Position numbers and translations under genes: made by a program. Below, piece by piece: positions 2,515-23,431 of a stretch of 64,000 nt of DNA (positions are counted from its first letter, which is position 1; each line of letters opens with the position of its first letter). Below the pieces are notes generated by a model. It made no database searches. It saw nothing but the letters and a program-made list of their open reading frames with translations, and had not been told where the DNA came from. Source of the DNA: a virus; the IMG/VR virus record IMGVR_UViG_3300026519_000001, positions 1 to 64,000 of that record; one strand, written 5' to 3'.

Positions 2515-2943
2515 ATGAAAGATAGAAACATCCAACATAAAGACGATTGGGCGACACCAGCATATTTTTATGATGAATTAAACAAAGAGTTTGATTTTAA
2601 CTTTGATCCTTGCCCGTATCTGCACGATTTTAGTAAATGGAACGGACTTGAAATTGAATGGAAGGAGCGAAATTTTATTAACCCACCTTATAGCAGAAAA
2701 CTGAAAGCCGCATTTGTAATTAAGGCAATAGAAGAAAGTAAAAAAGGTAAATTATGTGTAATGCTTTTGCCTGTGAGTACAAGCACTCAATTATTCCACA
2801 AACACATATTGCCGAATGCAAAAGAAATACGATTTATAGAAAAAAGAATAAAATTTTGCGGTGTAAATACAAAAGGAGAATATGTTACAGGCAAATCAGG
2901 CATGCACGATAGTATGTTGGTGGTGTTTGATGGACGCACTTAG
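2515..2943 (+). CDS. Phage DNA N6-adenine methyltransferase (Dam-like)
   Basis: DDWATP, FDPCP and catalytic FINPPYS motifs; VMLLP; EIRFI. Confidence 0.85.
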   Translation: MKDRNIQHKDDWATPAYFYDELNKEFDFNFDPCPYLHDFSKWNGLEIEWKERNFINPPYSRKLKAAFVIKAIEESKKGKLCVMLLPVSTSTQLFHKHILPNAKEIRFIEKRIKFCGVNTKGEYVTGKSGMHDSMLVVFDGRT

Positions 2944-2956
2944 CATTTTTTATTGT

Positions 2957-3316
2957 GCACAACGAATAGCATAAGCGTAGTGCGACTTTAGAAACGAAAT
3001 TTCAAAATAATAACAGAACTAATAATTAAAGATTATGGATAACGAAATTAAAATTGAAGCAAAAGAATTAGTGAATAAAATATACCAACCTCTTGGATCT
3101 TTAGATTGTAAAGTAAATAGTGATACAATGTGGGAATATGCACAAGGCAGAACGATTGAAATTGTGGAACATTTTATTGCGAAAATGCCAGAGGGTTCTG
3201 CAAATTGGTTGCATCATAGAAAGTTGATAGACGCTATTAATAATCTTTAATTATGGCATTTGAAACACTAAACTTGATTTTAAGCACTGTATTAAGCATT
3301 ACGCTTATGCAGTGTT
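2957..3316 (+). repeat. Hairpin site with a gene in its loop
   Basis: AAC 2961-2963; arms GCATAAGCGTAGTGC / GCATTACGCTTATGC; GTT 3314. Confidence 0.8.
3035..3250 (+). CDS. Hypothetical protein nested in a hairpin-site loop
   Basis: 71-aa ORF between the two arms. Confidence 0.65.
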   Translation: MDNEIKIEAKELVNKIYQPLGSLDCKVNSDTMWEYAQGRTIEIVEHFIAKMPEGSANWLHHRKLIDAINNL

Positions 3317-3342
3317 GTAAAATCGTTTTAATGTTTTACAAC
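3314..3342 (+). repeat. Empty cassette, copy 1
   Basis: GTTGTAAAATCGTTTTAATGTTTTACAAC, identical to 6026-6054. Confidence 0.85.
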
Positions 3343-3463
3343 GATTTGTATATGTGGTGTTGCGTGATTTAGCACCGAACTATTAAGAAATACTTAAACG
3401 TTCAAATTAAGCACGAAAATTAATAAATAAACAATAACCAAGCAATAACATATATACCGTGTT
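3340..3463 (+). repeat. Hairpin site (118-nt class)
   Basis: Arms GTATATGTGGTGTTGC / GCAATAACATATATAC. Confidence 0.75.
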
Positions 3464-3485
3464 ATATGCTTTTAAAAATAACAAA

Positions 3486-3752
3486 ATGTTAAGAAAATTA
3501 TTTAATAAAATAATACCCGTATCTGATGGAATTAAAAAATTAGGACAGCAAATGATTGACAATCCTTTAGACTGGGTTCAAGGGCAATATGAGTTTGTAA
3601 ATCGCAAAAATAGGGATGTTGCAATATGGACTTGCAATGGAATTAATTCGATTAAAATATTTGGATTTGATGGATTAACTAAAAGCGAAAAAATATATAT
3701 AAACAACTGTATAAAGATGGCAATTGCAAATAGATTAGTTCAGTCTCTATAA
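3486..3752 (+). CDS. Cassette-borne hypothetical protein (cassette 3461-3763)
   Basis: Flanked by GTTATATGC / GCATATAAC; ATG at 3486 preferred over GTG at 3459. Confidence 0.7.
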   Translation: MLRKLFNKIIPVSDGIKKLGQQMIDNPLDWVQGQYEFVNRKNRDVAIWTCNGINSIKIFGFDGLTKSEKIYINNCIKMAIANRLVQSL

Positions 3753-3760
3753 TTGCATAT

Positions 3761-3884
3761 AACGATTTTAATAAGAATAGTAGCCGAAAATGAAACGCAA
3801 AACTTATAAAATTGAACAGAATTATAAACATAGATAATAGCTTAAATAAACAGCTTAACTCGGCTATTATTTTTATTTTTTGTT
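3761..3884 (+). repeat. Hairpin site (118-nt class)
   Basis: Arms AATAAGAATAGTAGCCG / CGGCTATTATTTTTATT. Confidence 0.8.
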
Positions 3885-3898
3885 AGGCACTTTAATTT

Positions 3899-4210
3899 AT
3901 GGATAATAGAAAATGGCTCAAAAGAAAATACCCAAAAACATTTAATGAGATAAATAATTTTCTTGATAATGAAACTTTGATATTTGTTAAAAAAGGAAAA
4001 TATAAAATAGGTATGATAACAGAAGATATTATACAAGAGGATATTATATATTTAAAAGGAACTTTATGTTATTTTAAACGAAGTAATCCTATAAATAGTT
4101 ATAATTATCCGTTGCATACAATTTCTGTAAAAGATATACATAATGTAACGCTTAGTAATTATCATAATTTTTGGGTAACACCCAATAATGTAATTGAAAT
4201 TTTTGAATGA
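3899..4210 (+). CDS. Cassette-borne hypothetical protein (cassette 3882-4223)
   Basis: Flanked by GTTAGGCAC / GTGCCTAAC. Confidence 0.7.
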   Translation: MDNRKWLKRKYPKTFNEINNFLDNETLIFVKKGKYKIGMITEDIIQEDIIYLKGTLCYFKRSNPINSYNYPLHTISVKDIHNVTLSNYHNFWVTPNNVIEIFE

Positions 4211-4220
4211 TATTGTGCCT

Positions 4221-4309
4221 AACGTTGAATCTATGTGTAGTACAGCCATACATATAGTTTCATCGTTTAATAAAAATGTTAATTGGCTGTATTACATATA
4301 GATAGTGTT
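4221..4309 (+). repeat. Hairpin site (80-nt class)
   Basis: Arms ATCTATGTGTAGTACAGCCA / TGGCTGTATTACATATAGAT. Confidence 0.85.
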
Positions 4310-4325
4310 ATGTGGCGTTTTATTT

Positions 4326-4550
4326 ATGGAACAAAGAAATATTAATAATGTTATTTGGTTTTATTACGACAGTGTAATGGAATTTTTGCAAGATTTAATA
4401 GAATATGAATGCGAAATATTTAGAGATGAATATGGTCGTAGGTGGCAATATAAGAAGTACAAATTTTATTTTGCTGATATAAATGAAGAATTAACGGAAG
4501 GACTTTCGTGTTTGCACTTGTTTAAATCAGGAATTACAAATGCCACCTAA
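4326..4550 (+). CDS. Cassette-borne hypothetical protein (cassette 4307-4551)
   Basis: Flanked by GTTATGTGGCGTTT / AAATGCCACCTAAC; stop codon lies inside the AAC end. Confidence 0.7.
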   Translation: MEQRNINNVIWFYYDSVMEFLQDLIEYECEIFRDEYGRRWQYKKYKFYFADINEELTEGLSCLHLFKSGITNAT

Positions 4551-4572
4551 CAACAGGATAACAGCAATTGCG
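4546..4572 (+). repeat. 27-bp direct repeat, copy 1
   Basis: CCTAACAACAGGATAACAGCAATTGCG, identical at 11312-11338. Confidence 0.9.
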
Positions 4573-4663
4573 TATATATTATAAACGAATATTAATTTTA
4601 CTAACATTAGGTAATATTAATTATTTGTTGTTACTTTGAATTAACAAAAAAAAGAGAGCAATT

Positions 4664-4930
4664 ATGATAAATAGAACTATTGAAATTGAAGATTTAGACA
4701 AAGAGCTGTCTATTACAGTAAAAATTAACTTTTCGGGAGACTGGGAAGAACATTTTGAACATGAAGGAAAAATTGAATATCAGCCAAAATTTAATGAAAT
4801 ACTTAGGGTTGTTGATATTAGTGATAACCCGAAGCATAGTCATAGCATTTTGGAAATTGCCGATGAGCATTACGAAATTGCCAATAAATATTTAGAAAAT
4901 CACGATGTGATGGAGGAGCTAAACCACTAA
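4664..4930 (+). CDS. Hypothetical protein
   Basis: 88-aa acidic ORF. Confidence 0.65.
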   Translation: MINRTIEIEDLDKELSITVKINFSGDWEEHFEHEGKIEYQPKFNEILRVVDISDNPKHSHSILEIADEHYEIANKYLENHDVMEELNH

Positions 4931-4933
4931 ATT

Positions 4934-5155
4934 ATGAAAAATATAATAATTTTAATGATTATTGCAGCAACATTAAGCTGCTCTAAAAAAGAAGAAATTA
5001 ATTGCAAGTGTGATTTTATTTCTTATGAAAGAGAAAATAGGGACTCGGAGTAGGTTGAGAAAAGCAGAATAAGCAGAATAACAGAGTGCGGTAAGCCACC
5101 ATTCTTTATTATTAGCAACACAGAATTATCTAAAGATGTAATTTCTTGCAATTAG
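4934..5155 (+). pseudogene. Small Cys-rich lipoprotein interrupted by an in-frame TAG
   Basis: MKNIIILMIIAATLSC (lipobox) SKKEEINCKC...DSE*VEKSR...ISCN*. TAG at 5051-5053; the frame stays open to 5155 and the next ATG is at 5158. Confidence 0.55.
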
Positions 5156-5157
5156 TT

Positions 5158-5361
5158 ATGGAAAAGTCAGAAAATAAATTAAAAGAGCAACAACTTAGGG
5201 CAGAAATTAGAATTATGCTATCAAAGTATATAGACAACTCACCGTCAATATCTTTAATAGAAAATAAGATAAGAGACCTTGAGCTGCTTGTTTTTAATCG
5301 TGCTTATAAACAAGTATCACAACGATTTGTATATGATTTTGTAGGCATTACGAGCCACTAA
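5158..5361 (+). CDS. Hypothetical protein whose 3' end runs into a hairpin left arm
   Basis: ATG at 5158; AAC at 5321-5323 lies inside the ORF. Confidence 0.55.
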   Translation: MEKSENKLKEQQLRAEIRIMLSKYIDNSPSISLIENKIRDLELLVFNRAYKQVSQRFVYDFVGITSH

Positions 5362-5443
5362 TTTTTTGAATTACCTACATATTTGAAACGAGAAAATAAA
5401 TTTGAATTATTAACCAAATCGCCTATAAATTATATACTTTGTT
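5321..5443 (+). repeat. Hairpin site (118-nt class)
   Basis: Arms GTATATGATTTTGTAGGC / GCCTATAAATTATATAC. Confidence 0.75.
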
Positions 5444-5473
5444 ATATATCTGGGCGGTTTTAAAGACTAAATT

Positions 5474-5686
5474 ATGATAGAAGAGTTAGAGAAAACAACA
5501 GACTACGCTAAGAAGTACAGAGGTGTAGCACAGCAATCACTTGAAAGAAACAATTATATGAACCAAATAGAAGATGGGGAGCAAATACAGCAAAGGATTA
5601 TAGATGCTGTGCTGGTTGACTTTATAAACTACATTGGAATGATGCACGGAATTGATTATGGAATTTATACAAAAGACTTAATGTAG
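5474..5686 (+). CDS. Cassette-borne hypothetical protein (cassette 5441-5699)
   Basis: Flanked by GTTATAT / ATATAAC. Confidence 0.7.
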   Translation: MIEELEKTTDYAKKYRGVAQQSLERNNYMNQIEDGEQIQQRIIDAVLVDFINYIGMMHGIDYGIYTKDLM

Positions 5687-5696
5687 CCTTGCATAT

Positions 5697-6028
5697 AACT
5701 ATTGCTATATGAATAGTGCGGATAAAATACACGAAACTTTGAATTAAACACAAACCTAATAATTAAAATTATGTACTTAATAAAAATAAAAACTCATAAC
5801 AATCACGGATGCTGGTTAAGGTCTTTTTACGATGGCGACCCTGATAGAACATTGATAAGAGAAAGTGCTTTGAAGTTTGCAAAGAAAAAGATGGCAGAAG
5901 GTAAAGTAAAAATGCTTAACCAACTACACCCTAATAGAAGTTTTGAATTAGAGAAATTTTAATTATGACATTTGAAACACTAAACGTTAATTACAGCACG
6001 AAACCAAGCATTATTTATATAGCGTGTT
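5697..6028 (+). repeat. Hairpin site with a gene in its loop
   Basis: Arms GCTATATGAATAGTGC / GCATTATTTATATAGC. Confidence 0.8.
5771..5962 (+). CDS. Hypothetical protein nested in a hairpin-site loop
   Basis: 63-aa ORF between the arms; motif GDPDRTL. Confidence 0.65.
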   Translation: MYLIKIKTHNNHGCWLRSFYDGDPDRTLIRESALKFAKKKMAEGKVKMLNQLHPNRSFELEKF

Positions 6029-6054
6029 GTAAAATCGTTTTAATGTTTTACAAC
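6026..6054 (+). repeat. Empty cassette, copy 2
   Basis: Identical to 3314-3342. Confidence 0.85.
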
Positions 6055-6137
6055 GGTTGGTATATGTGTTGTACGCCAATCACTTAACTTAAATTTTAGT
6101 ACGACACTTAATAGGCGTATAACATATATACCTTGTT
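6052..6137 (+). repeat. Hairpin site (80-nt class)
   Basis: Arms GGTATATGTGTTGTACGCC / GGCGTATAACATATATACC. Confidence 0.85.
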
Positions 6138-6168
6138 GTGTGTAGTACGGGTAAATAAAGAAGAAATT

Positions 6169-6363
6169 ATGAAGAAATATTTTAGAAAAGACAAACCAAA
6201 TAAAGACCAAATAATTGGGTTTAAATCGAAAAAAGGATTTTATCCTGAGATTGGTGTATTCCAAACATTTGATAATGGCATTGAAGAAGTTTATATACCT
6301 GCAAATGATGATGTAGAGAAGTTATTAGAAATTGAATATTGGTTTGAAGTACCTAAAAAGTAG
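6169..6363 (+). CDS. Cassette-borne hypothetical protein (cassette 6135-6376)
   Basis: Flanked by GTTGTGTGTAGTAC / GTATTACGCACAAC. Confidence 0.7.
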   Translation: MKKYFRKDKPNKDQIIGFKSKKGFYPEIGVFQTFDNGIEEVYIPANDDVEKLLEIEYWFEVPKK

Positions 6364-6373
6364 TATTACGCAC

Positions 6374-6498
6374 AACGAGTTACTTGTATGAGTAGTAGCC
6401 GTAAATAAGCACAGAATTGAGTAGATACAAAATAAATTAATAACAAGGTAATAGTTTATAAATACAGCCTAACACGGCTATTACTTATACAAATTGTT
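6374..6498 (+). repeat. Hairpin site (118-nt class)
   Basis: Arms TTGTATGAGTAGTAGCCGT / ACGGCTATTACTTATACAA. Confidence 0.85.
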
Positions 6499-6511
6499 AG
6501 GCAACGTTATT

Positions 6512-6736
6512 ATGAGTGAAAGTAAATTAAGAATATTCGGTGGAAAAGATGATGTTAGTTTTTGGAGTGATAAGCCTATGCGAAGAGGTAATCCAAACTT
6601 TAAAGAGAAATGGTATCATATACATTGGTATAATATTCTGTATCATCCAAAACATAAATCGACTGATGGTTCTATTGTAGAAGAAATGACAAATATAAAT
6701 CTATATAAATGTAGATGTGGTAAATGTAAGCAGTAG
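6512..6736 (+). CDS. Cassette-borne small protein, possibly Zn-binding (cassette 6496-6752)
   Basis: Flanked by GTTAGGCAACGTTA / TAATGTTGCCTAAC; HIH...CRCGKC. Confidence 0.7.
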   Translation: MSESKLRIFGGKDDVSFWSDKPMRRGNPNFKEKWYHIHWYNILYHPKHKSTDGSIVEEMTNINLYKCRCGKCKQ

Positions 6737-6749
6737 GCTAATGTTGCCT

Positions 6750-6871
6750 AACGGTTTGGCTATGTGTAGTGCCGACCTTGATAAATAACTACACTAACTT
6801 AAAACACTGAAACAATGGATAAAGAACATATTAAACAAGAAGAAAACAAGGCATTACATATAGGTGTTGTT
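6750..6871 (+). repeat. Hairpin site (118-nt class) with an ORF start in its loop
   Basis: Arms CTATGTGTAGTGCC / GGCATTACATATAG. Confidence 0.8.
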
Positions 6872-7015
6872 GTGTGTGGTTCTTGCGGTAAAGACATAAA
6901 GCCCGAAGATGATAAGCATTGTTTTTGGGATGAAGATATTGAAGATGGTATAAAGCCCGAATGTTTAGATTGTCATTTGGACAGAGAATCTATTATTAGA
7001 GACTTTGGTTTTTGA
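6815..7015 (+). CDS. Junction-spanning protein with CxxC...CxxC Zn-ribbon motif
   Basis: Starts in the loop and crosses GTT 6869 in frame into cassette 6869-7027 (GTTGTGTGTGGTTC / GAATTACACACAAC). Confidence 0.65.
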   Translation: MDKEHIKQEENKALHIGVVVCGSCGKDIKPEDDKHCFWDEDIEDGIKPECLDCHLDRESIIRDFGF

Positions 7016-7024
7016 ATTACACAC

Positions 7025-7147
7025 AACGTTACCGTGTATGGTTTCGTTGCGTGTAAATAAGAAAAAACATTGATTAAACAATAAATAAAATAAATACTAA
7101 CAAGCCTTTGGAATAGCAGTTAGAAGCAATGAATTATACACATTGTT
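7025..7147 (+). repeat. Hairpin site (118-nt class)
   Basis: Arms GTGTATGGTTTCGTTGC / GCAATGAATTATACAC. Confidence 0.75.
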
Positions 7148-7196
7148 ACCTACTGTACGAGTAAAAAGGCACAAACTTTAATAAAAAACAGAAATT

Positions 7197-7589
7197 ATGG
7201 GAATGTACACGGAACTAATATTTGGTGCTGATTTAAAACAAGACACACCAAAAAACGTAATTGAAGCCTTAAAATATATGATAGGCGATACAGAAGAAAA
7301 GCCTAATGACTTTCCTTTACCTGATGGTAGATGTGAATGGTTATTTAATAGTGCTAGTTATTACTTTGGTGTAAATAGACCAGTAAATAAAATGTGGTTT
7401 GATCATATTGATAATAATTGGGTTTTAAGCACCCGAAGCAATATAAAAAACTATGAAGGCGAAATTGAGGCTTTTTTGGAATGGATAAAACCATACATTG
7501 ATGGTGGTAGTGGTTATCGTGATATGTATGCAATAGTTACTTATGAAGAAGCAGAAGTGCCAAATATTTATTACTTGCGCGAAGATTAG
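7197..7589 (+). CDS. Cassette-borne hypothetical phage protein (cassette 7145-7602)
   Basis: Flanked by GTTACCTAC / GTAGGTAAC; MGMYTEL...IKNYEGEIEAFLEWI. Confidence 0.75.
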   Translation: MGMYTELIFGADLKQDTPKNVIEALKYMIGDTEEKPNDFPLPDGRCEWLFNSASYYFGVNRPVNKMWFDHIDNNWVLSTRSNIKNYEGEIEAFLEWIKPYIDGGSGYRDMYAIVTYEEAEVPNIYYLRED

Positions 7590-7599
7590 TATTGTAGGT

Positions 7600-7684
7600 A
7601 ACGGTTTGTGTATGAAAAGTAGCCCATACACAGGCTTTCGGAATTATTACAAAACTTAATGGGCTATTTTTTATACACTTTGTT
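7600..7684 (+). repeat. Hairpin site (80-nt class)
   Basis: Arms GTGTATGAAAAGTAGCCCAT / ATGGGCTATTTTTTATACAC. Confidence 0.85.
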
Positions 7685-7730
7685 AGCGTTTCGTTTTTTG
7701 AGCGTTGGCAGATAAAATAAAGGAAATATT

Positions 7731-7937
7731 ATGAGTACAAAATTTGTAGATAGAAAAAACGATGAAGAAATAATTGACATCGTAAACAGTATTTTATCAA
7801 ATGGTAAAATGCAAGTAGAAACTATTAATGAAGCTATATTAGTCAAGTTAATGGAAATAAGGAATACTCCTATAAAATACGATAAATCGTTTAGGAATAT
7901 TGATAAAGATTTTAAGCGTTGGCAAAATGAACGCTAA
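7731..7937 (+). CDS. Cassette-borne hypothetical protein (cassette 7682-7938)
   Basis: Flanked by GTTAGCGTT / AACGCTAAC; stop codon inside the AAC end. Confidence 0.7.
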   Translation: MSTKFVDRKNDEEIIDIVNSILSNGKMQVETINEAILVKLMEIRNTPIKYDKSFRNIDKDFKRWQNER

Positions 7938-7997
7938 CACACGGCTAACCGGCATGCTTGATATTTGTGGATATACGGAACTTAAAAATTATCAAAA

Positions 7998-8087
7998 ATG
8001 AAGTTTATAATAATTGACATAGATGGAACTGTTTCAAAAATAGGAGACCGTCTTAAATGCTTTCAAGTAGAAGAAGGAGATTTTTAA
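7998..8087 (+). pseudogene. Internally deleted HAD 3'-phosphatase (PNK/PseT-like) remnant
   Basis: MKFIIIDIDGTVSKIGDRLKCFQVEEGDF: the N-terminal DxDGT motif is joined directly to the C-terminal CxQVxxGDF motif. Confidence 0.65.
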
Positions 8088-8088
8088 A

Positions 8089-8274
8089 ATGTATAAAATA
8101 TCATATAGAATCTCGTATCGACCAATAAAGCTGCCTGTTATATTTCAAGGTATAAAAGGATATGCACCTAGATTGTGGCATGTATTTTACGAACACAGAT
8201 GGATGTTATTTTCTGAATTTTATAACATTCAAAAACATGATGAAATGATTATTGGGTTATTTTTAGAAAAATAG
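8089..8274 (+). CDS. Hypothetical protein
   Basis: Short ORF packed between neighbours. Confidence 0.5.
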   Translation: MYKISYRISYRPIKLPVIFQGIKGYAPRLWHVFYEHRWMLFSEFYNIQKHDEMIIGLFLEK

Positions 8275-8276
8275 GA

Positions 8277-8612
8277 ATGAACAAAATACCAACCATATTA
8301 CAAGATTACTTTCTTCTAACTTTAGATAAAAGGTTTGAGTCTAAGTCAAAGTCTGGATTAATGACGGTTAATGAATCATACATAGCCGGAACAGCAGAAG
8401 AAGAGGAAGGGTGGGAAAAGAACCTCCACAAAAGAATTTATGGAACTGTAATATCTTGCCCAAAGTCATTTAGTGATGACCCTATATTTGCAATAGACCC
8501 CGGTAGCCCAACCCCTAAAAGATATATAAGTGCCGAAGAAATAGAAAATAAGGTAAAGATTGGGATGAGAAATTACTCAAGGACAGATTACTCGCCAACG
8601 CCTTTAATTTAG
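8277..8612 (+). CDS. Possible GroES-like protein, probably truncated
   Basis: KSKSGLM...GTVISCP resembles GroES-fold motifs; weak. Confidence 0.35.
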   Translation: MNKIPTILQDYFLLTLDKRFESKSKSGLMTVNESYIAGTAEEEEGWEKNLHKRIYGTVISCPKSFSDDPIFAIDPGSPTPKRYISAEEIENKVKIGMRNYSRTDYSPTPLI

Positions 8613-8635
8613 ATAAATTTATTACAAAAGAAAGG

Positions 8636-9004
8636 TTGGAAAAGAGCAAAACAGGAAATGTAATAGGGCAACTCTCTAAATGGATGCAAGAAGACGGAAT
8701 GCCTTACTACATTGATACACTTTACTATAATCACTTAGGTAAAAAGTTGCCTGCATCTGCTTTAGGATATACGCCAAATGGCGAAGGTATAAACTTTCTT
8801 CCAATCTTGTTAAATGTTAGATACTCTGATAAAGGCAAAAACCATTTAGTTGGTGGTAAAATAAGCAAAAACGGTGTTTTGTACTTATACGATAGTTTAA
8901 AAGAAGAAATGATTGAAACTACACTCGCAAAAGCAAATAGAATGTACCATAATGTATATGGCTTGTTTATGTCTGTTGAAACTGGCGACTATATTTTTAT
9001 ATAA
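8636..9004 (+). CDS. Hypothetical protein or gene fragment
   Basis: ORF with TTG start, ending just before a short hairpin site at 9028-9071. Confidence 0.45.
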   Translation: MEKSKTGNVIGQLSKWMQEDGMPYYIDTLYYNHLGKKLPASALGYTPNGEGINFLPILLNVRYSDKGKNHLVGGKISKNGVLYLYDSLKEEMIETTLAKANRMYHNVYGLFMSVETGDYIFI

Positions 9005-9027
9005 GCACAAGGTTAGTACTTGTAGTT

Positions 9028-9071
9028 AACGAGATAGGCTAAACGGTTGTTTTAATGCCGTTTTAGCCATT
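9028..9071 (+). repeat. Minimal or degenerate hairpin site
   Basis: AAC, GGCTAAACGG, TTGTTTTAATG, CCGTTTTAGCC; no intact downstream GTT. Confidence 0.5.
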
Positions 9072-9132
9072 TTGCTTGTATATATCGTATATATCATATA
9101 CCTTAGTAATATCAAATTAAAACATTAAGAAA

Positions 9133-9306
9133 ATGACAAACTCAGAATTAAGAATCGAAATAGCAAAGTTAGAAGAACAAAAAATAAACTTTTGCGATAA
9201 CAATTTGTTATTTAACCAATTTACTGCACTGATTAATGAAATTAAAATAGAAATACATAAAGATAGTAAAGTTGCACTAAAAGCACTTGGATTTGGAGAA
9301 AGATAA
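9133..9306 (+). CDS. Hypothetical 57-aa protein (not in the ORF track)
   Basis: MTNSELRIEIAKLEEQK...KALGFGER*; more plausible than the antisense ORF 9117-9341. Confidence 0.55.
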   Translation: MTNSELRIEIAKLEEQKINFCDNNLLFNQFTALINEIKIEIHKDSKVALKALGFGER

Positions 9307-9439
9307 TTGACATACCAGAAGATATTAAGAAACAATTGCAAATACTTGCTATTAAAGCGGATAAGGATTTAAAGAACTATATACAAGACTTACTAATTAG
9401 CCATATAGCATATAGCGTGGGCAAAAAATAGTTACATAT

Positions 9440-9560
9440 AACGGTTTTAATAAGAATAGTAGCGTGTAATTATGCGGAAACTATCAGATTGAAATAATTA
9501 ATTAACAGGTAATAGCCACTAAAAAGACACCTTAACAGGCTATTATTTTTATACATTGTT
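9440..9560 (+). repeat. Hairpin site (118-nt class)
   Basis: Left arm TTTTAATAAGAATAGTAGC, same as site 3763; right arm GCTATTATTTTTAT. Confidence 0.75.
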
Positions 9561-9577
9561 AGGGTGCGTTACTTAAA

Positions 9578-9832
9578 ATGAACAACCCAATTAAAGATAA
9601 CAGAATTGTAAAAGACAAAACTTTCGCTTTAAGGCTTTTAAGTTTTGCGTTAGAAACCAACTGTGTTGATGCTTCTAGTGAAGATGAAAAAGAATCTATG
9701 ATAAGTTACTCTACAAGTTTACTTAAATACCAAATAGAAACTGCAACCGAAATACACGAAACGGCTTATTTAGAAAGGTGTAATGCAAAAGCAAGACTTA
9801 AAAAAGGATTAAAGTTTTTAGGTAAAGCCTAA
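9578..9832 (+). CDS. Cassette-borne hypothetical protein (cassette 9558-9843)
   Basis: Flanked by GTTAGGGTGCGTTA / TAATGCACCCTAAC. Confidence 0.7.
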   Translation: MNNPIKDNRIVKDKTFALRLLSFALETNCVDASSEDEKESMISYSTSLLKYQIETATEIHETAYLERCNAKARLKKGLKFLGKA

Positions 9833-9957
9833 TGCACCCTAACGATGCCTCACTTTGCTATATTTATTGTTAGGCATCTTTTAAAATTACGGCATTATGG
9901 GATATAATCTAATAAGTGGTTGTCATAAATGTGAAAAGCAAATATTTCACTTTAGAA

Positions 9958-10194
9958 ATGAAGAAAATAACACATAATTTAGGAGAGAAATTGCAATGGT
10001 TTTTATACTTTGTTATATGCCGTTTTGGTTTTCATAAATGGGGAATGACCAAATGGTGCAGATTTAAAGATAAAAAATGTAAGTATTTAGTTGAAGAAGG
10101 TTTTGACAGAGATTGCGAACATCCATTTAATTATGTTGTGATTGGTAATGATACAATACTAAATAAATGCACAAAATGTGGTAAAGAATTTTAG
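9958..10194 (+). CDS. Junction-spanning Cys/His-rich protein
   Basis: MKKITHNLGEKLQWFLYFV|ICRFGFHKW...CTKCGK; crosses GTT 10012 in frame. Confidence 0.6.
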   Translation: MKKITHNLGEKLQWFLYFVICRFGFHKWGMTKWCRFKDKKCKYLVEEGFDRDCEHPFNYVVIGNDTILNKCTKCGKEF

Positions 10195-10209
10195 CAATTT
10201 ATGTTTGCT

Positions 10210-10397
10210 AACGGTTTGTGCAAGGTTAGTGCGGAATTAATAACAGAACTTAATAAATATAAACTATGGTAAATATAAACACTATTGAAGGAATTGAAAA
10301 CCTTATAGATAAAAGAACAAAACCTTTAAAAGAGGAAATACTTAAACTACGATTTGAATTAGAAGAACTGAAACAAGCATTAACTATACAGATTGTT
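10210..10397 (+). repeat. Hairpin site with an ORF in its loop
   Basis: Arms TGTGCAAGGTTAGTGC / GCATTAACTATACA. Confidence 0.65.
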
Positions 10398-10415
10398 AGC
10401 ATTTCGGTTTTCTAA
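10266..10415 (+). CDS. Junction-spanning 49-aa coiled-coil peptide (not in the ORF track)
   Basis: MVNINTIEG...ELKQALTIQIVSISVF*; crosses GTT 10395 in frame. Confidence 0.55.
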   Translation: MVNINTIEGIENLIDKRTKPLKEEILKLRFELEELKQALTIQIVSISVF

Positions 10416-10431
10416 CAAAACTAAAATTATT

Positions 10432-10719
10432 ATGAAACAAATTATTGAATGGTCAAAAGGAAACCCTGGAGCAATGAACTTTATGATGGAGTTTTTTAAA
10501 CCAGAAAACGCAGTATTAGGAATTGGAATACTATCGAAATTGGAAGAATTGAAAACTATTAGAGGAACTAATCTTTATGTGCTTTACTCTGATTTATGTG
10601 GTAAGGATTTAAAGGCAGTTGAAACTCTTTGTAAAAATTGCCCGTCTGAAATATTAGAAGATGCTTGTTCAAGACAAGACTACTCTGGTAGAGAGTTGGT
10701 AAAGGAGTACCTTACATAG
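10432..10719 (+). CDS. Hypothetical phage protein
   Basis: MKQIIEWSKGNPGAM...GTNLYVLYSDLC. Confidence 0.7.
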   Translation: MKQIIEWSKGNPGAMNFMMEFFKPENAVLGIGILSKLEELKTIRGTNLYVLYSDLCGKDLKAVETLCKNCPSEILEDACSRQDYSGRELVKEYLT

Positions 10720-10846
10720 TGATAGATGATAGTGAAATAATTAATACAAGAGAAATGGCAGAAGCATTAGAACACGCAATGTTTATTAGTTTTTGTTTTA
10801 ATAACCCTGATAGAATAGACTTACGTTAGTAATTTTTATCGTGGGT

Positions 10847-10905
10847 AATGAATGGTTGTATTGTGTCGTATTTGCTTTTCGCAAATATGCAATATATACT
10901 TTGTT
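10847..10905 (+). repeat. Short hairpin site with AAT in place of AAC
   Basis: Arms GTATTGTGTCGTATTTGC / GCAAATATGCAATATATAC; GTT 10903. Confidence 0.6.
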
Positions 10906-10953
10906 AGGCTTATGTACGGTAAATGATAAACTAAATTATAAAAACAGAATAAA

Positions 10954-11304
10954 ATGGAAAAATTTAAGATTGAAATTGACAGAAGAGAAATAGTTGAAAC
11001 TATTAACAAAGGTATTCACGATAAAATTAGAGAGCAAATGAACGCTCAATCTAAGCAAATTGAAGCATCTATTGCTGATCACTTTAAAAGATCGTTTTTC
11101 AATGAAAAGAAAAATGAATTTGAATCTGCTTTGGATTATACTATTGAAACTTCATTTAGAGATGGATTGGAATTAGCAATGAAAGAAATGAAGTTCAAAG
11201 AACTAATTGCAGAAAAAGCAAAAGAATTATTAAGTGATGACAATTTGATACAGGAACTTGCAGAAGCAAAAGTTAGAAGTTCTTTAGGTTTACCGCTAAA
11301 GTAG
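10954..11304 (+). CDS. Cassette-borne helical protein (cassette 10903-11317)
   Basis: Flanked by GTTAGGCTTA / TAAGCCTAAC. Confidence 0.7.
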   Translation: MEKFKIEIDRREIVETINKGIHDKIREQMNAQSKQIEASIADHFKRSFFNEKKNEFESALDYTIETSFRDGLELAMKEMKFKELIAEKAKELLSDDNLIQELAEAKVRSSLGLPLK

Positions 11305-11311
11305 TATTAAG

Positions 11312-11338
11312 CCTAACAACAGGATAACAGCAATTGCG
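11312..11338 (+). repeat. 27-bp direct repeat, copy 2
   Basis: Identical to 4546-4572. Confidence 0.9.
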
Positions 11339-11527
11339 GTATTAGACAAGACTAGTTTGATTAAAACCGCTAATGGTGAATAATGAAAAGTATAATATGA
11401 TAATCCATACTTAAAATTTTGCTATAAGAATTGAACTTAGATGGCTTTTTACTTTATACAATGTTACCCATCTTTTAAAAGTACAAAAATTTGAAATTGT
11501 TAGAATATTAAAAAATAAAATTAAAAA

Positions 11528-11917
11528 ATGTCATTAACAAAAGAACAAAAAAGTAAACAAGCAAAAAATAATCGTGCAAAAGGACATTCTTTAGAAAGAA
11601 GAATAAGATTAAAATTTATTGAATTAGGTTTTGATAAATGCCGAACCAGTAGACAGGCTTCCAGATTATTAGATGATAGTAAAGTAGATTTAGCACAAAT
11701 ACCTTATAATGTACAATGTAAAAAAGGTTATCCAAAAGGAATAAATTATACAAAGCTGTTTCAAGATATGAATGAGAGTTTGAAAGAACACTTTATGGAA
11801 GGTGATCCAATAATAGATTATCCTAAAATTATCATACATGATAAAGATAGGAAGAAATCAGAAAAGCTTGTAATTATGCAAGAAGAAGATTTTTGGAAAA
11901 TATTTAAACATAAATAA
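11528..11917 (+). CDS. Holliday junction resolvase-like PD-(D/E)XK nuclease
   Basis: KGHSLERR...VDL...VQCK motif layout. Confidence 0.7.
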   Translation: MSLTKEQKSKQAKNNRAKGHSLERRIRLKFIELGFDKCRTSRQASRLLDDSKVDLAQIPYNVQCKKGYPKGINYTKLFQDMNESLKEHFMEGDPIIDYPKIIIHDKDRKKSEKLVIMQEEDFWKIFKHK

Positions 11918-12242: not shown

Positions 12243-13316
12243 ATGAAAAGAATAAAAAGAAATTTTAATGAACCAGAATATAGACAACTTAAATGTATTA
12301 GTTATTCACAATTATCAAATTTAGATAGTTATCCAGAAAGTTTAATTCAAACAAAACCTATGGAAATGACCGAGCCATTAATATATGGTTCAGCAGTAGA
12401 TTGCTTAGCATTTGATGGTAGAGAAGTGTTTGATAAAAAATTTACGGTAATAAGTCAAGAAAAACCTTCTTGGATGTTAGAAAAAGTATTAAAAGGTGTT
12501 ATAGATGAAATATTTATTACTCACAATGAATTATTAGGCATACCTATATCTGAAGATTTATCTAAATATTCAGATATTATATTAAAAGTGGCTAAATCAG
12601 TTGAGTATGGGAAAGGATGGAAGCCTGAAACTATTATAAGAAAAACTATTGAGGGGTGTGGTGAATTATATAAAAACACCATTAAAAATAGAGATAAACT
12701 TGCATTAAGTCCTCAACAATATGAATATGTAGAAAATAGTGTAACTACTTTATTTACACATGAATTTACGGCAGAATTTTTTACAGCTGATGAAGGTCAA
12801 GATATTTATTATCAATTACCTATTATATGGGATTATTTTGATAAGGAGTTAAACAAAACAATACATTGCAAATCTTTATTAGATATTTTATTAATAGATC
12901 ATAATACTAAAACAATTTATCCAATAGATTTAAAAACAACTGGAAAATCCATATATTCTTTTAATAAAAGTTTTATTGAATGGCGTTATTTTTTACAAGC
13001 TTCTTTTTATTCTGATGCAGTTAAACATTTATGCAATGTACAATATCCTGAATTAGCAGATTATAATATAGCATTATTTAAATTTGTAGTTATATCTTCT
13101 AAAAACCCACGTAAACCTCTAGCATTTCAAATTACAAATGGCGTATTGGATGCTGGTAAATTTGGAACTGTTAATCCTAATAATCATAAAATTAAACAAA
13201 GAGGATATTTAGAATTAGTAAGGGATATGCAATGGCATATAAACAATCAAAAATTTGATTATCCAAAAGAAATTTATGACAAAAAAGGAATGGTTATACT
13301 AGACAGTTTATTTTAA
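12243..13316 (+). CDS. PD-(D/E)XK exonuclease (RecE/exonuclease VIII-like)
   Basis: SYSQL, GSAVD, KSLLD...IDLKTT and YFLQASFY motifs. Confidence 0.8.
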   Translation: MKRIKRNFNEPEYRQLKCISYSQLSNLDSYPESLIQTKPMEMTEPLIYGSAVDCLAFDGREVFDKKFTVISQEKPSWMLEKVLKGVIDEIFITHNELLGIPISEDLSKYSDIILKVAKSVEYGKGWKPETIIRKTIEGCGELYKNTIKNRDKLALSPQQYEYVENSVTTLFTHEFTAEFFTADEGQDIYYQLPIIWDYFDKELNKTIHCKSLLDILLIDHNTKTIYPIDLKTTGKSIYSFNKSFIEWRYFLQASFYSDAVKHLCNVQYPELADYNIALFKFVVISSKNPRKPLAFQITNGVLDAGKFGTVNPNNHKIKQRGYLELVRDMQWHINNQKFDYPKEIYDKKGMVILDSLF

Positions 13317-15983: not shown

Positions 15984-17345
15984 ATGACAGGAGAATTTAT
16001 TGTTGCTAAAATAAAGCAACTAGATAAAATAGAAGGAGCTGATAAAATTGTCAGTTCTAATCTATTTGGAGAAACTATTATTACTTCAACAAATACTAAA
16101 GTTGGTACAGTAGGTTTATTATTTGACATTGAAACTGTTTTAAGTCTAGAGCTGTGTCAAAAATTAAATCTTCACAGGCATAGTAATTTGAATGATAATA
16201 AAGAAGTAGTAGGATACTTTGACGATGCAAGAAGAGTAAGACCCATTAGGCTTAAAGGGGTGAAGTGTAGTGCATTCTTTTTGCCTCTTGATGGCATAGA
16301 AGTATTTACAGGATTAGATTTATTAGAAGACCTTAAAGTAGGTGCACAAGGTAATAATATAGGGGAATATCCAATATGTGCTAAGTACTTAAAAAAAAGA
16401 ATAAGAACTGAAAATAAAGAAGGTAAAATCAAGGAAGATTTAGTTCCTACTTTTAAACAACATCTTGATACTGATCAGGCATTAAGAAACATGCAAAAAG
16501 TTCAAGTTGGAGATTTGGCTATAATTTCAGAAAAAATTCATGGTACTAGCTTCAGATGTGGTTATTTACTTACTAAAACTAAATTAAGTTTATGGAGTCA
16601 GTTTTTTAACTTTATAGCTAATGGTATTTGGAATACTCATACTAATGTTTATAACTTTATAGTAGGTAGCCGTAGAGTCTTAAAGTTTATTGGTGGAGAG
16701 GAATTTAAAAACAAACAAAGTTACTATGACCGTGATTTATGGACATTTGTAGCTAAAAGAGAGTTTGAAGGAAAATTAGAAAAGGGAGAAACAATTTATG
16801 GAGAGATCGCAGGATATGATTTATCAGGAGGACTAATAATAGGTTCTCAAGGAAATAAAAAGTTAAAACCATTTATGGGCAAAAAAGAATACAAAACTTT
16901 TATTGATAGATATGGAGAAATTACTGAATTTACCTATGGATGCACTTTAGATGAAGACCCAGAAAACAAAACTCTATTCAATTTAGAAAAGATTAATAAA
17001 GTTTTTGTTTATAGAATTACTACAACTAATGAAGATGGAGTATCCATGGATTTATCTTGGGAACAAGTTAAAATGAGGTGCGAACAAATGAATGTTAATC
17101 ACGTTCCTGAATTAGCTAAATTTCTTATACAAGAAGGAGACACACAAATGATTGAAGATTATTTAATAGATGAGGCTAAAGAGCCTTCTAGATTGTTTCC
17201 TCAACATCTAAGAGAAGGCGTTTGTTTAAGATTAGAAGGGTCTTCATTAACACCTAAAATATTTAAAGAAAAAAATTATTTTTTTAAAGTTATTGAAAGA
17301 ATTATCAAAGAAACAGAAGAAACTAATTTAGAAGACGAAAATTAA
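15984..17345 (+). CDS. RNA ligase (Rnl2/DRB0094-like family)
   Basis: Nucleotidyltransferase motif I EKIHGT; IYGE; EGVCLR; terminal KxK; N-terminal IEGADKI. Confidence 0.85.
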   Translation: MTGEFIVAKIKQLDKIEGADKIVSSNLFGETIITSTNTKVGTVGLLFDIETVLSLELCQKLNLHRHSNLNDNKEVVGYFDDARRVRPIRLKGVKCSAFFLPLDGIEVFTGLDLLEDLKVGAQGNNIGEYPICAKYLKKRIRTENKEGKIKEDLVPTFKQHLDTDQALRNMQKVQVGDLAIISEKIHGTSFRCGYLLTKTKLSLWSQFFNFIANGIWNTHTNVYNFIVGSRRVLKFIGGEEFKNKQSYYDRDLWTFVAKREFEGKLEKGETIYGEIAGYDLSGGLIIGSQGNKKLKPFMGKKEYKTFIDRYGEITEFTYGCTLDEDPENKTLFNLEKINKVFVYRITTTNEDGVSMDLSWEQVKMRCEQMNVNHVPELAKFLIQEGDTQMIEDYLIDEAKEPSRLFPQHLREGVCLRLEGSSLTPKIFKEKNYFFKVIERIIKETEETNLEDEN

Positions 17346-22100: not shown

Positions 22101-23431
22101 ACATCTTGAATATTACTAAGATTATTATCTACCATTTGAAGATAAGCTAATACAGCAGTGGAATTTTCAGTATCTTCTAGTTTATTTAATTGATTTTGAA
22201 GTTGTTCTAATTGTCCTTTATATAAAATATTACCTTCACTTAGTTGTTCATCTTTTGGTAATTCATTTAATTGCGATCTTATTATAGAATATATTTGCTC
22301 TCTTACATTTGTAAGGGTATTTAATCTTCTTTTAATAATAGTAGCCTTTTCAAATTTTGTATTTTTATCTTTTTGAAATTGAGTATCAATAGGGAGTAAA
22401 TTAGTTAATAATGATTCTTTTTCAGTTACTAATTCAGAAGCTAATGATAAAACAGCATCTTTTGGAACTCCCAATTCTCTATTAATTAAATTCTTAAACC
22501 AAGTAACAAATCTTTTCCACCAACTAATTTGAGTTGAACCATCAAATATGGCAGCAGCTTCTTTACCCAAAGCTGTGGATATAATTTCTTTTCTAAGATT
22601 ATCTCCTGATAAATTAGGATAAGCTTCAGAAACTTCTTTTTCAATAGTAGTTCCTATAAGTTGGTCACTAGCAGCTTTAATTCTAGCATTGTTCATACCA
22701 CCTAATAGCTCAATAAAAAGATGACCAAATTCATGAAATACTGTATCGCTATATAATTTATTAGGATTTACTACAATAATAGCAGTTCCCTTAACTAATT
22801 TATTATCCGATAATAATTGAGAATATATAGGATCGTTAGTACCAAGTAATTTACCTGATTCATTCATATCAGCATCATAAGAAATAAAAGTATTAACTCC
22901 TAATGCAGAAAATTTATTTTCCATTAAATTAGCTTGTTTATCAGCTAATTCTTGATTAATTATATTGGTATCAGCAGGGAGAACTCTTTTATCATTAGTA
23001 TCATAAGGTAATACATCACCTTCATCACTAATATATTCATTAGCATCTATCTCATTATTATCTTCCCTTTTTTGCCTGTCTATAATTTGGTCAGCAAAAG
23101 GAGTTACATCAAGTTTTATAACTTTAGTTATTGTGCCTCTATTCTTTAAACTAACTTCATTTAATACTCTACCATAAGTTCTGTTAACAGAACTTATTAA
23201 TTTCCTAGCTTCATTAAGCAAAGTTGTATCTTTAGGCAATAAAAATCTATCATCCTTTTTTGTGACTATTTTAAGAGGTTTCTTTAAAAGTCTATCATTA
23301 GCTGCAATAACAGCATCATATACTTTATAATGATAAGCTGCTAATGCCCTAGCATCACTTTCTATATAACTCCTATTACCATATTTTCTTCTACACACCA
23401 TATTAATTACATATTTCTTGAAATAAGCCAT
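19112..23431 (-). CDS. Large virion cargo protein with zincin-like HExxH motif
   Basis: FHEFGH plus a downstream Glu; adjacent to the virion RNAP, as in crAss-like phages. Confidence 0.7.
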   Translation of the reverse strand: MAYFKKYVINMVCRRKYGNRSYIESDARALAAYHYKVYDAVIAANDRLLKKPLKIVTKKDDRFLLPKDTTLLNEARKLISSVNRTYGRVLNEVSLKNRGTITKVIKLDVTPFADQIIDRQKREDNNEIDANEYISDEGDVLPYDTNDKRVLPADTNIINQELADKQANLMENKFSALGVNTFISYDADMNESGKLLGTNDPIYSQLLSDNKLVKGTAIIVVNPNKLYSDTVFHEFGHLFIELLGGMNNARIKAASDQLIGTTIEKEVSEAYPNLSGDNLRKEIISTALGKEAAAIFDGSTQISWWKRFVTWFKNLINRELGVPKDAVLSLASELVTEKESLLTNLLPIDTQFQKDKNTKFEKATIIKRRLNTLTNVREQIYSIIRSQLNELPKDEQLSEGNILYKGQLEQLQNQLNKLEDTENSTAVLAYLQMVDNNLSNIQDVLNEKEFKYNSNHSNMIKVLASFKEVVASFSLVADIQDSVNKQFLDNDEEYVSVEDKKLVQDLVADLSARYVSTQNKIVAMSTAHLARLMSVISNRSIVARKDELEIEFNKNNKKSDNESKQEYVNRRNEHIESVIEDERDSLREKEYENIFKLLNHSPADVSWLASWLNDGKSVNSIVIQLVEKFLDDADTQRDGNLLIMQNKAAKAFKELKKSSSGTDPKKLYKGLYETGSDGNLYYSSRYSVEFYIKYRKLSEIETATELEFGNNSKEHKKAFKNVNDFLNDNLKNGIPIAKWLNLNYNTIKNNEVYKFLIDISFEGNNKTEGLNSNIKSFDTQAMTIKWHKAPNIGKKGFEQIASGNIMENLYESLKRTISAKRADETEFGSQDLDLISRQDELQIEIDKRIKAGESADDLADEINSLIKITNSVGDLKSNIPIFFRGQHNLKDQSYDLISIALMDYAMAENYYQKNKIKDVLELTLAVTNNKQVAQTEGALKKTMVQMLGKNVYEEVKQKVGIESNEAKMLASIIENRLYGVKTIKKEYAQIANSLMAWSATTMLAFNHLAAAPNVIQGKVFNFIEAHGGQYYNKKDLVKGEAKYWASMKGILDDVGKPVQRGKTNQMMNLFSIQGEFKVMSTRFNEDNRFKSLLSKSSLFFMNHLGEHYIHGTMMYSILNNIKIKNKEGQFINSRGEVVSKEKAMTLDEAFSVGEDGNLKLNKYVYKTSFGNQKLSLDLTNDKGILEVRNLINKIANDMHGQYNDEYQSMFQRRVVGKMVGMLRKWIVPGFNRRWRGSNRAFKKKDLLRKDIDVFFSEDLQTFQEGYYTSFIRFINTLVQDFKRLGLQGAWSGGMDNLTTHEKANLRKTVMELSMIVLSFVSSMFIYKQLDGLDEDDEEAMMYLAFFSRRLYSELSFFANPLETFQILRSPAASISYTEDIIRFLSQIVSDGTNLELEIYQRGKNKGLPKAWKRGIDLLPIANQMGKTPKESLSYLLNTN

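Follow-up and report, generated by a model that had tools for sequence, protein, structure and literature searches.

Whether small genes can be captured and shuffled by site-specific recombination in a phage is the question raised by the array of short open reading frames (ORFs) and hairpins at positions 2955-11470 of the window, i.e. the 64,000 nucleotides that were analysed and that form the first 64 kb of the 94,261-bp IMG/VR virus record IMGVR_UViG_3300026519_000001. The original prediction, made from the letters alone, had described this region as an integron-like gene-cassette array inside a crAss-like phage. We consider it probable, at roughly 0.7, that the array is a recombinase-less cassette cluster of an Xer-type integron-like system common to Flavobacteriaceae and phages. 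Because the same sites lie beside an Xer-like recombinase gene in Flavobacteriaceae chromosomes, phages and hosts probably exchange small genes by way of this system, which does without a classical integrase.

All 13 units that had been predicted to begin with GTT-N and to end with the complementary N-AAC were confirmed by direct reading of positions 2800-11700 and by an exact-word scan; one of them starts at 4308, not at 4307. Each unit opens with GTTR and about six private bases and closes with their complement and YAAC. The prediction of private ends was correct in that every unit has complementary ends of its own, but these measured 7-10 bp instead of 7-14 bp. The fourth base (GTTA/TAAC or GTTG/CAAC) agrees within all 13 units and disagrees across four junctions. 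Stop codons were found, as predicted, inside the YAAC arm or 0-10 nt before it. The complementarity had been claimed to hold within a cassette and not across a site, and this was borne out in 550 kb of related loci: at a threshold of at least 8/10 Watson-Crick pairs, ends were complementary in 57 of 94 comparisons within a cassette, whereas the figures were 15 of 156 for ends compared across a junction and 259 of 2977 for random pairings.

The junction sites between successive units are imperfect palindromes of 85-127 nt, composed in order of AAC, an internal loop of 5-6 x 3 nt, a stem of at least 16 bp, a variable loop (roughly 35 to about 190 nt) and GTT. AAC is followed by 5-6 unpaired bases, usually GGTTT, after which the stem opens with GTATATG; the return arm closes with TATAC, followed by three unpaired bases and GTT. 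A structure scanner applied to the 94-kb genome detected nine sites on the + strand and one on the - strand (0-2 and 0-5, respectively, in shuffles). The 13 matches to a covariance model were confined to the + strand; ten fell within 3339-9561, with E values of 1e-18 to 4e-11, and three belonged to a second array (81,987-84,900). The predicted hairpins were thus found by both methods. The site folds well on one strand only: in 11 of 13 junctions the + strand folded better than the - strand, and across the related loci one strand was favoured by the sites 157:1. When 22 sites from phages and chromosome were aligned, 98.2% of the cells were paired, compared with 76% in shuffles and 31-56% in slid alignments, and compensatory double changes were present at 11 of 15 stem pairs. 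AAC and GTT were invariant in 22/22 sites. Extrahelical or bulged bases were not found in the site consensus; there are instead an asymmetric internal loop and two invariant G.U pairs, five pairs apart (G.T in DNA, A.C on the other strand). The pattern GTTRRRY/RYYYAAC is not kept, the cores GTTGTAA, GTTACCT and GTTATAT breaking RRRY as the prediction had stated.

The same kind of site was found in bacterial chromosomes. Within a 38-kb region of Formosa sp. A9, the scanner detected 23 sites on one strand and one on the other (1-5 in shuffles). These sites have the same build and a nearly identical arm sequence to those of the phage, and neighbouring sites enclose genes whose ends are complementary over 9-11 bp of private sequence. 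The array genes, one of which is a CdiI_3 immunity gene, lie mostly on the strand opposite to the sites. A 390-aa Xer-like tyrosine recombinase is encoded at the 5′ head of the array, co-directional with the array genes. Its best families were archaeal XerA/integron integrase (215 bits) and IntI (208.9 bits, cut-off 265), and the IntI-specific insert at model positions 180-238 was unmatched. Homologues (E <= 1e-60) were present in 138 of 301 sampled Flavobacteriaceae genomes. At the 30 best homologous loci, within 1.5 kb, 16 sites were located downstream on the opposite strand, two downstream on the same strand and none upstream; nine of the 30 contigs stop no more than 301 nt past the gene. 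The sites were again downstream and on the opposite strand in all 18 of the 18 genomes that had the best model hits and the recombinase on one contig.

Circularity was avoided by training a covariance model, R2, on phage sites only (window and Cellulophaga phage phi19:3). Applied to the Formosa array, R2 yielded 21 sites; it also detected sites at 14 further recombinase loci, and none in the first 50 kb of phage phi14:2. By model search, the site family occurred in 133 of 151 sampled Flavobacteriaceae genomes, often with at least 23 sites per genome; the model search of phage and Bacteroidota genomes that had been suggested as a check on the prediction, made here in phages and Flavobacteriaceae, returned sites in phages and in chromosomal arrays. 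Furthermore, a phage-type cassette (locus L184, 4055-4437) lies inside the Formosa array in frames almost identical to those of window 2955-3342. Its site polarity is kept and its ORF is inverted, as is expected if orientation is set by the site and not by the gene. The predicted site-specific cassette platform is supported by these recombinase-adjacent arrays, by the private ends that they share with the phage and by the phage-type cassette among them. As a separate observation, the site downstream of one Formosa cassette (L184, 5154-5300) had dozens of matches per genome with 76-92% identity, also in 10 other Formosa genomes; these fall into clusters of 46-54 kb, indicating very large arrays.

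Among viruses, the site family was found in the crAss-like podovirus of the window, in phi19:3 (Pachyviridae), in Polaribacter phage P12002L (at least six full sites) and in dozens of IMG/VR contigs, the covariance model detecting 22-26 sites in single viral loci of 13-15 kb. The integrase adjoining the phi19:3 array and the array-linked recombinase are unrelated. A 29-nt unit occurs twice in the window. Exact matches to its 23-nt inner part (pattern GTAAAAYCGTTTTAATGTTTTAC; GTTGTAAAATCGTTTTAATGTTTTACAAC) were present in nine bacterial assemblies and in 61 IMG/VR contigs; in the latter the surroundings were the same throughout, and many of these contigs have long arrays. The complete chromosome of Formosa sp. 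A9 contains it as well. An Xer-like recombinase is present in the viral contigs L055, L129 and L172 and in contig L188 of a Polaribacter metagenome-assembled genome. The 29-nt unit lies about 3.6 kb from it in L172 and approximately 45-70 nt from it in the other three, a proximity which indicates that the unit may be a primary (attI-like) site. The stretch of about 60 nt ahead of the unit (3253-3313 and 5965-6025 in the window; L129, L127) is conserved at DNA level across contigs; some copies have in-frame stops or lack an ATG, so that the 39-40-aa ORFs called there are probably not genes. Following the 29-nt unit there are recurrent hairpins (window 9047-9057 and many loci) that vary in the stem and have the fixed loop CGTTTTAATG. 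A conserved loop on a freely varying stem suggests a protein-binding or nicking site.

The phage itself proved to be crAss-like, as judged from its gene content. The ORF at 23403-29846 (-) is a homologue of the virion RNA polymerase gp66 of phi14:2 (33% identity, E 2e-172), which bears out this part of the prediction, and a PD-(D/E)XK exonuclease encoded at 12243-13316 matched crAss-like phages only. The record carries a 127-bp terminal repeat. Short stretches of the window are 92-100% identical to Cellulophaga baltica phages and point to a host among the Flavobacteriaceae. With the exonuclease as protein query, no relatives were found in IMG/VR and only relatives below 60% identity in the phage collection, and so there is no close relative for a comparison of gene order. 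This exonuclease had no match in four viral contigs rich in arrays (93, 71, 56 and 39 kb), which hence show no sign of close kinship to the window phage.

According to the mechanism proposed here, the two ends of a circularised cassette would lengthen the stem of the site, and the private end complements would be created and kept by an exchange of strands at the AAC/GTT cores or close to them. The recombinase would be supplied by the host or by a co-infecting element and would act on single-stranded phage DNA during replication; small accessory genes would thereby be gained, lost and exchanged among unrelated phages and host arrays. The ORFs lie on the foldable strand in 4/4 cassettes of the window phage genome and in 34/41 of other viral loci, whereas 11 of 12 ORFs of the Formosa array are antisense to it, as in integrons. 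Because phage cassette ORFs are on the foldable strand, the hairpins are present in the mRNA too. For self-expressed cassettes, they may at the same time serve as terminators or insulators, and such a regulatory role likely coexists with the role in recombination. A wider reading, for which we see even chances, would unite these arrays in one cassette-exchange system of Flavobacteriaceae and their phages, integron-like but with an Xer-like recombinase and a site grammar of its own (an asymmetric spacer and two G.T wobbles that do not vary). Unrelated phage families, with a crAss-like phage among them, would provide both vehicles and reservoirs; their cassettes would be inverted, so that the hairpin is transcribed and each cassette self-expressed, and ORF-exact swaps would be traces of the making of new cassettes.

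Several observations weigh against recombination at the sites. The 94-kb phage genome was searched for tyrosine and serine recombinases, Y1 transposases and IntI, and none was found; many genomes have sites and gave no recombinase match at E <= 1e-60. The link between sites and recombinase is one of association, and no recombination product was seen in the metagenome data, which are the assembled contigs of one metagenome and from which circle junctions are not readable. Since the foldable strand is the mRNA strand in phages, a role at the RNA level is possible. In the sole published test, the site P12002L_attC1, predicted by HattCI, gave no recombinants with IntI1 (PMC9892861); it is a short-form member of the present site family, for which IntI1 is not the presumed cognate enzyme. 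Related cassettes often represent an ORF-exact replacement within conserved 5′ and 3′ frames, which a crossover at the cores does not account for, and in two cases the junction had moved with the downstream 5′ frame and not with the upstream ORF.

Such replacements were observed repeatedly. Cassette X1 (5441-5699) and cassette X2 of the second array (genome 82611-82957) have a common junction, a 24-nt leader and a 16-nt trailer around unrelated ORFs. Cassette Y1 (9558-9843) likewise shares its frames, and not its ORF, with a cassette of phi19:3; the right half of its junction at 9439..9561 and the leader are 94% identical to phi19:3. A low-depth variant contig, with about one fifth of the main depth, has exactly 5769-5956 swapped out for 238 other bases, its flanking frames matching at only about 85-90% (16 differences in 139 aligned bases). 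Other contigs of the probable source metagenome part from the window at or just upstream of ORF starts. Homologues of ORF 7197-7589 in phages phi17:1 and phi18:1 are 79% identical at the nucleotide level over the ORF only, and the phi17:1 copy has no GTT/AAC frame. The breakpoints had been expected at the AAC/GTT cores: this was the case in the contig pairs L135/L143 and L141/L176, where homology begins exactly at TAAC or stops at GTT, but they often lay at ORF ends instead. The shared frames fit reusable expression frames and alone are no proof of recombination at the cores. No cassette insertions or deletions were seen in contig pairs of at least 99% identity, and alignment of consistently oriented related loci revealed plain synteny without a clean cassette transfer. 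A 19-mer of the X frame gave zero matches in IMG/VR. A 15-mer from the 5′ arm matched at least 117 IMG/VR contigs, once each; these were regarded as chance matches and discarded.

That frames remain intact through ORF-exact swaps favours a different explanation, in which the units are purely regulatory modules: a terminator hairpin would come before a promoter-like TATAC-N3-GTT, the ends would pair the termini of small mRNAs, and shuffling would occur by homologous recombination between the repeated modules only, in the way put forward for promoter-early stem-loop (PeSL) cassettes of T4-type phages. In phages, all wobbles are indeed G.U-compatible on the sense strand and T runs follow several stems, but the Formosa sites, of the same polarity, are antisense to 11 of 12 cassette ORFs, and private end complementarity exists there too, where an mRNA would have A.C mismatches. 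Some 20 leaders on the + strand of the array region, and a terminase gene in phi17:1 too, have a motif TAYAC-N1-5-TGTTR ahead of them. On the other hand, many genomes have the sites in a set position and orientation relative to a recombinase gene, and the sites occur in phages of differing transcription machinery and not in the first 50 kb of phi14:2. We regard an exclusively regulatory function as improbable. Judged by eye, TATAC-N3-GTT is no fit to the Bacteroidetes -7 promoter consensus TAnnTTTG.

The sheer abundance of model matches, present in 133 of 151 Flavobacteriaceae genomes with often at least 23 each and in many cases without a recombinase match at E <= 1e-60, could also indicate selfish or structural palindromic repeats of the repetitive extragenic palindrome or miniature inverted-repeat transposable element kind, disseminated among Flavobacteriaceae and phages, to which the recombinase gene would be unrelated and which would confer no present mobility on cassettes. 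Dispersed repeats would not, however, yield complementary ends private to each gene, nor arrays of one polarity directly downstream of a recombinase and none upstream, and this explanation is therefore considered quite unlikely. That the hairpins are promoters for the crAss-like virion RNA polymerase, with its preference for single-stranded templates, comparable with the hairpin promoters of N4, is very hard to uphold: the array does lie in the presumed early region upstream of the replication genes, and phi14:2 gp66 transcribes single-stranded DNA with no early promoter motif known (10.1101/2020.03.07.982082), but the first 50 kb of phi14:2 contain no sites, and sites do occur in bacterial chromosomes and in the non-crAss-like phages phi19:3 and P12002L, which may or may not encode such a polymerase.

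Array units and junctions are given below in their order in the window, all on the + strand and with bit scores of covariance model R1. The left array end (2955..3316) starts with the YAAC core GTGCACAAC (2955-2963), for which the upstream partner GTTGTGCA was not found, and continues as a split site, the loop of which, between the two arms, is occupied by ORF 3035-3250; its frame recurs with a different ORF in the Formosa chromosome (L184, 4055-4411). The Dam-type adenine methyltransferase gene at 2515-2943 is located directly upstream. The 29-nt 'empty' unit at 3314..3342 consists of GTTGTAAAA, an 11-nt loop and TTTTACAAC, forming a 9-bp hairpin. It is followed by the attC-like junction site 3339..3464 (90.1 bits, E 1e-18; 13 Watson-Crick and two G.T pairs of 16 by the scanner) and by the cassette 3461..3763, with ends GTTATATGC/GCATATAAC (9 bp) and an ORF ending at 3752. 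Junction 3760..3885 (76.7 bits) leads to cassette 3882..4223, with ORF 3899-4210 between the ends GTTAGGCAC/GTGCCTAAC (9 bp), and the short-loop junction 4220..4310 (60.7 bits) to cassette 4308..4551, the ends of which (GTTATGTGGC/GCCACCTAAC) pair at 9/10 positions with one mismatch and the stop codon of which lies within TAAC. Junction 5320..5444 (66.3 bits, E 6e-13), which was outside the R1 training set and is about 82% identical to genome 82492-82650, precedes cassette X1 at 5441..5699, whose end complementarity is 7 bp. A further split site at 5697..6028 contains ORF 5771-5962 in its loop, and the same frames surround other ORFs in the contigs L131 and L145. It adjoins the second copy of the 29-nt empty unit (6026..6054; 9-bp hairpin).

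Junction 6051..6138 (58.6 bits) is followed by cassette 6135..6376, with ends GTTGTGTGTA/TACGCACAAC (9/10 and a T.G), and junction 6373..6499 (87 bits) by cassette 6496..6752, with ends GTTAGGCAAC/GTTGCCTAAC (10 bp). The loop of junction 6749..6872 (76.9 bits) holds the start of ORF 6815-7015; the unit that follows, 6869..7027, has the ends GTTGTGTGT/ACACACAAC (9 bp). The reading frames of two ORFs (window 6815-6872; L001 2623-2690) run through a GTT core from a start upstream of it, and their N-terminal peptides are similar (…ALxI(G/P)VV); the start may have been mis-called, or the leader may be shared. Junction 7024..7148 (66.9 bits, outside the R1 training set) precedes cassette 7145..7602, with ends GTTACCTAC/GTAGGTAAC (9 bp) around ORF 7197-7589, and junction 7599..7685 (65.5 bits), which folds into a 20-bp stem, precedes cassette 7682..7938, with ends GTTAGCGTT/AACGCTAAC (9 bp). 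The short ORFs 8009-8086, 8089-8274, 8277-8612 and 8636-9004 follow in shifting frames with no sites between them and may be one frameshifted or split gene. The short-form site 9028..9068 consists of AAC, a spacer and a 10-bp stem with the loop TTGTTTTAATG and is without the right GTT; it is 88.7% identical to P12002L 30012-30063, which matches the published P12002L_attC1 primer sequence.

Junction 9439..9561 (86.6 bits) leads to cassette Y1 (9558..9843; ends GTTAGGGTGC/GCACCCTAAC, 10 bp), and the last cassette, 10903..11317, has ORF 10954-11304 between the ends GTTAGGCTTA/TAAGCCTAAC (10 bp). The last junction, 11315..11465, is divergent: it begins with AACAACAGGATAACAGCAATTGCG, as at 4549, and ends with TATACAAT-GTTACCC. 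It gave no covariance-model match, and a partner for GTTACCCATC was not found. An RNA-ligase-domain protein is encoded downstream of the array at 15984-17345. The second array, outside the window at genome 81987-85100 and on the same strand, comprises the three covariance-model matches already mentioned, a cassette with ends GTTAACTAC/GTAGTTAAC and cassette X2. Of 19 phage-array ORFs, 10 were compared with PHROGs and 10 with Pfam, one ORF being in both sets; not one fitted a family of known function.

The present results place full arrays of this type in phages, including a crAss-like phage, and reveal the same sites in 133 of the 151 Flavobacteriaceae genomes sampled. Full-text literature searches turned up neither these sites nor arrays of the kind in Crassvirales, of which the original prediction had likewise known no description. 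Should the sites be active, one pool of mobile small genes would be shared by phages and by bacterial islands in which interbacterial-immunity genes occur, and the turnover of phage accessory genes and the origin of cassettes could be tested in the culturable pairs Cellulophaga/phi19:3 and Polaribacter/P12002L.

In site structure, integrons are among the closest known systems. Both have AAC/GTT cores, R-type and L-type pairings, an unpaired spacer, a variable loop, single-strand asymmetry and a site length that is 85-127 nt here; in both, the cassette start complements its own end (13/13 window units), the ORFs are compact and the stop codon lies at the site. Unlike integrons, the present sites have two invariant G.T wobbles and no conserved GTTRRRY, extrahelical bases are not seen in them, some ORFs lie inside the site loop, and in phages the foldable strand is the sense strand. 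IntI (TIGR02249) was not found in the phage, nor at E <= 1e-40 in 301 Flavobacteriaceae genomes, where the control genomes were also without IntI and provided no positive control. The prediction that this is not a classical attC array therefore holds. PeSL cassettes of T4-type phages reportedly consist of small novel ORFs in a hyperplastic early region, with promoter and stem-loop modules that are exchanged by homologous recombination. The present array is like them in having small ORFs between repeated modules and frames reused around different ORFs, whereas AAC/GTT cores, private end complements, a link to a tyrosine recombinase and chromosomal arrays are not known from PeSL cassettes. With 10 sites in 6.2 kb and no recombinase, the array also resembles a cluster of attC sites lacking integron integrases (CALIN), as defined by the present site family and not by the attC model of IntegronFinder. 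CALINs have been reported in virulent phages, including P12002L (Qi et al. 2023, PMC9892861), while classical integrons are nearly absent from Bacteroidetes (PMC9024848).

In overall architecture, a close counterpart is rAID-1, a recombinase-associated acquired interbacterial defence system of Bacteroidales chromosomes (Ross et al. 2019, 10.1101/471110; PMC12247911), in which an XerD-like recombinase is accompanied by co-directional genes and by repeated intergenic stretches likened to integrons (10.1101/471110). Its definition asks for immunity-gene cargo and for a recombinase with no less than 44% identity to B. fragilis BF9343_RS08045. The window phage differs from rAID-1 in that its 94 kb contain no recombinase, its ORFs are inverted relative to the site and its array resides in a lytic-type crAss-like phage instead of a bacterial chromosome; the counterparts of the conserved intergenic repeats are the ten model matches in the window and three in the second array. 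Papers on rAID-1 up to 2025 give a predicted recombinase and conserved motifs only and leave phages unmentioned, and the 2019 bioRxiv version and the 2025 preprint were found to contain no account of site anatomy, strand polarity, private end complements or phage arrays. A defined anatomy and strand polarity for rAID-type intergenic motifs are added here. The link to Bacteroidales rAID-1 is drawn by analogy of architecture: the Formosa array shares with it the 5′ Xer-like recombinase, short co-directional genes, repeated intergenic sites and a CdiI_3 gene, and the same layout of a 5′ recombinase and at least two co-directional short genes was found in at least 17 other Flavobacteriaceae genomes.

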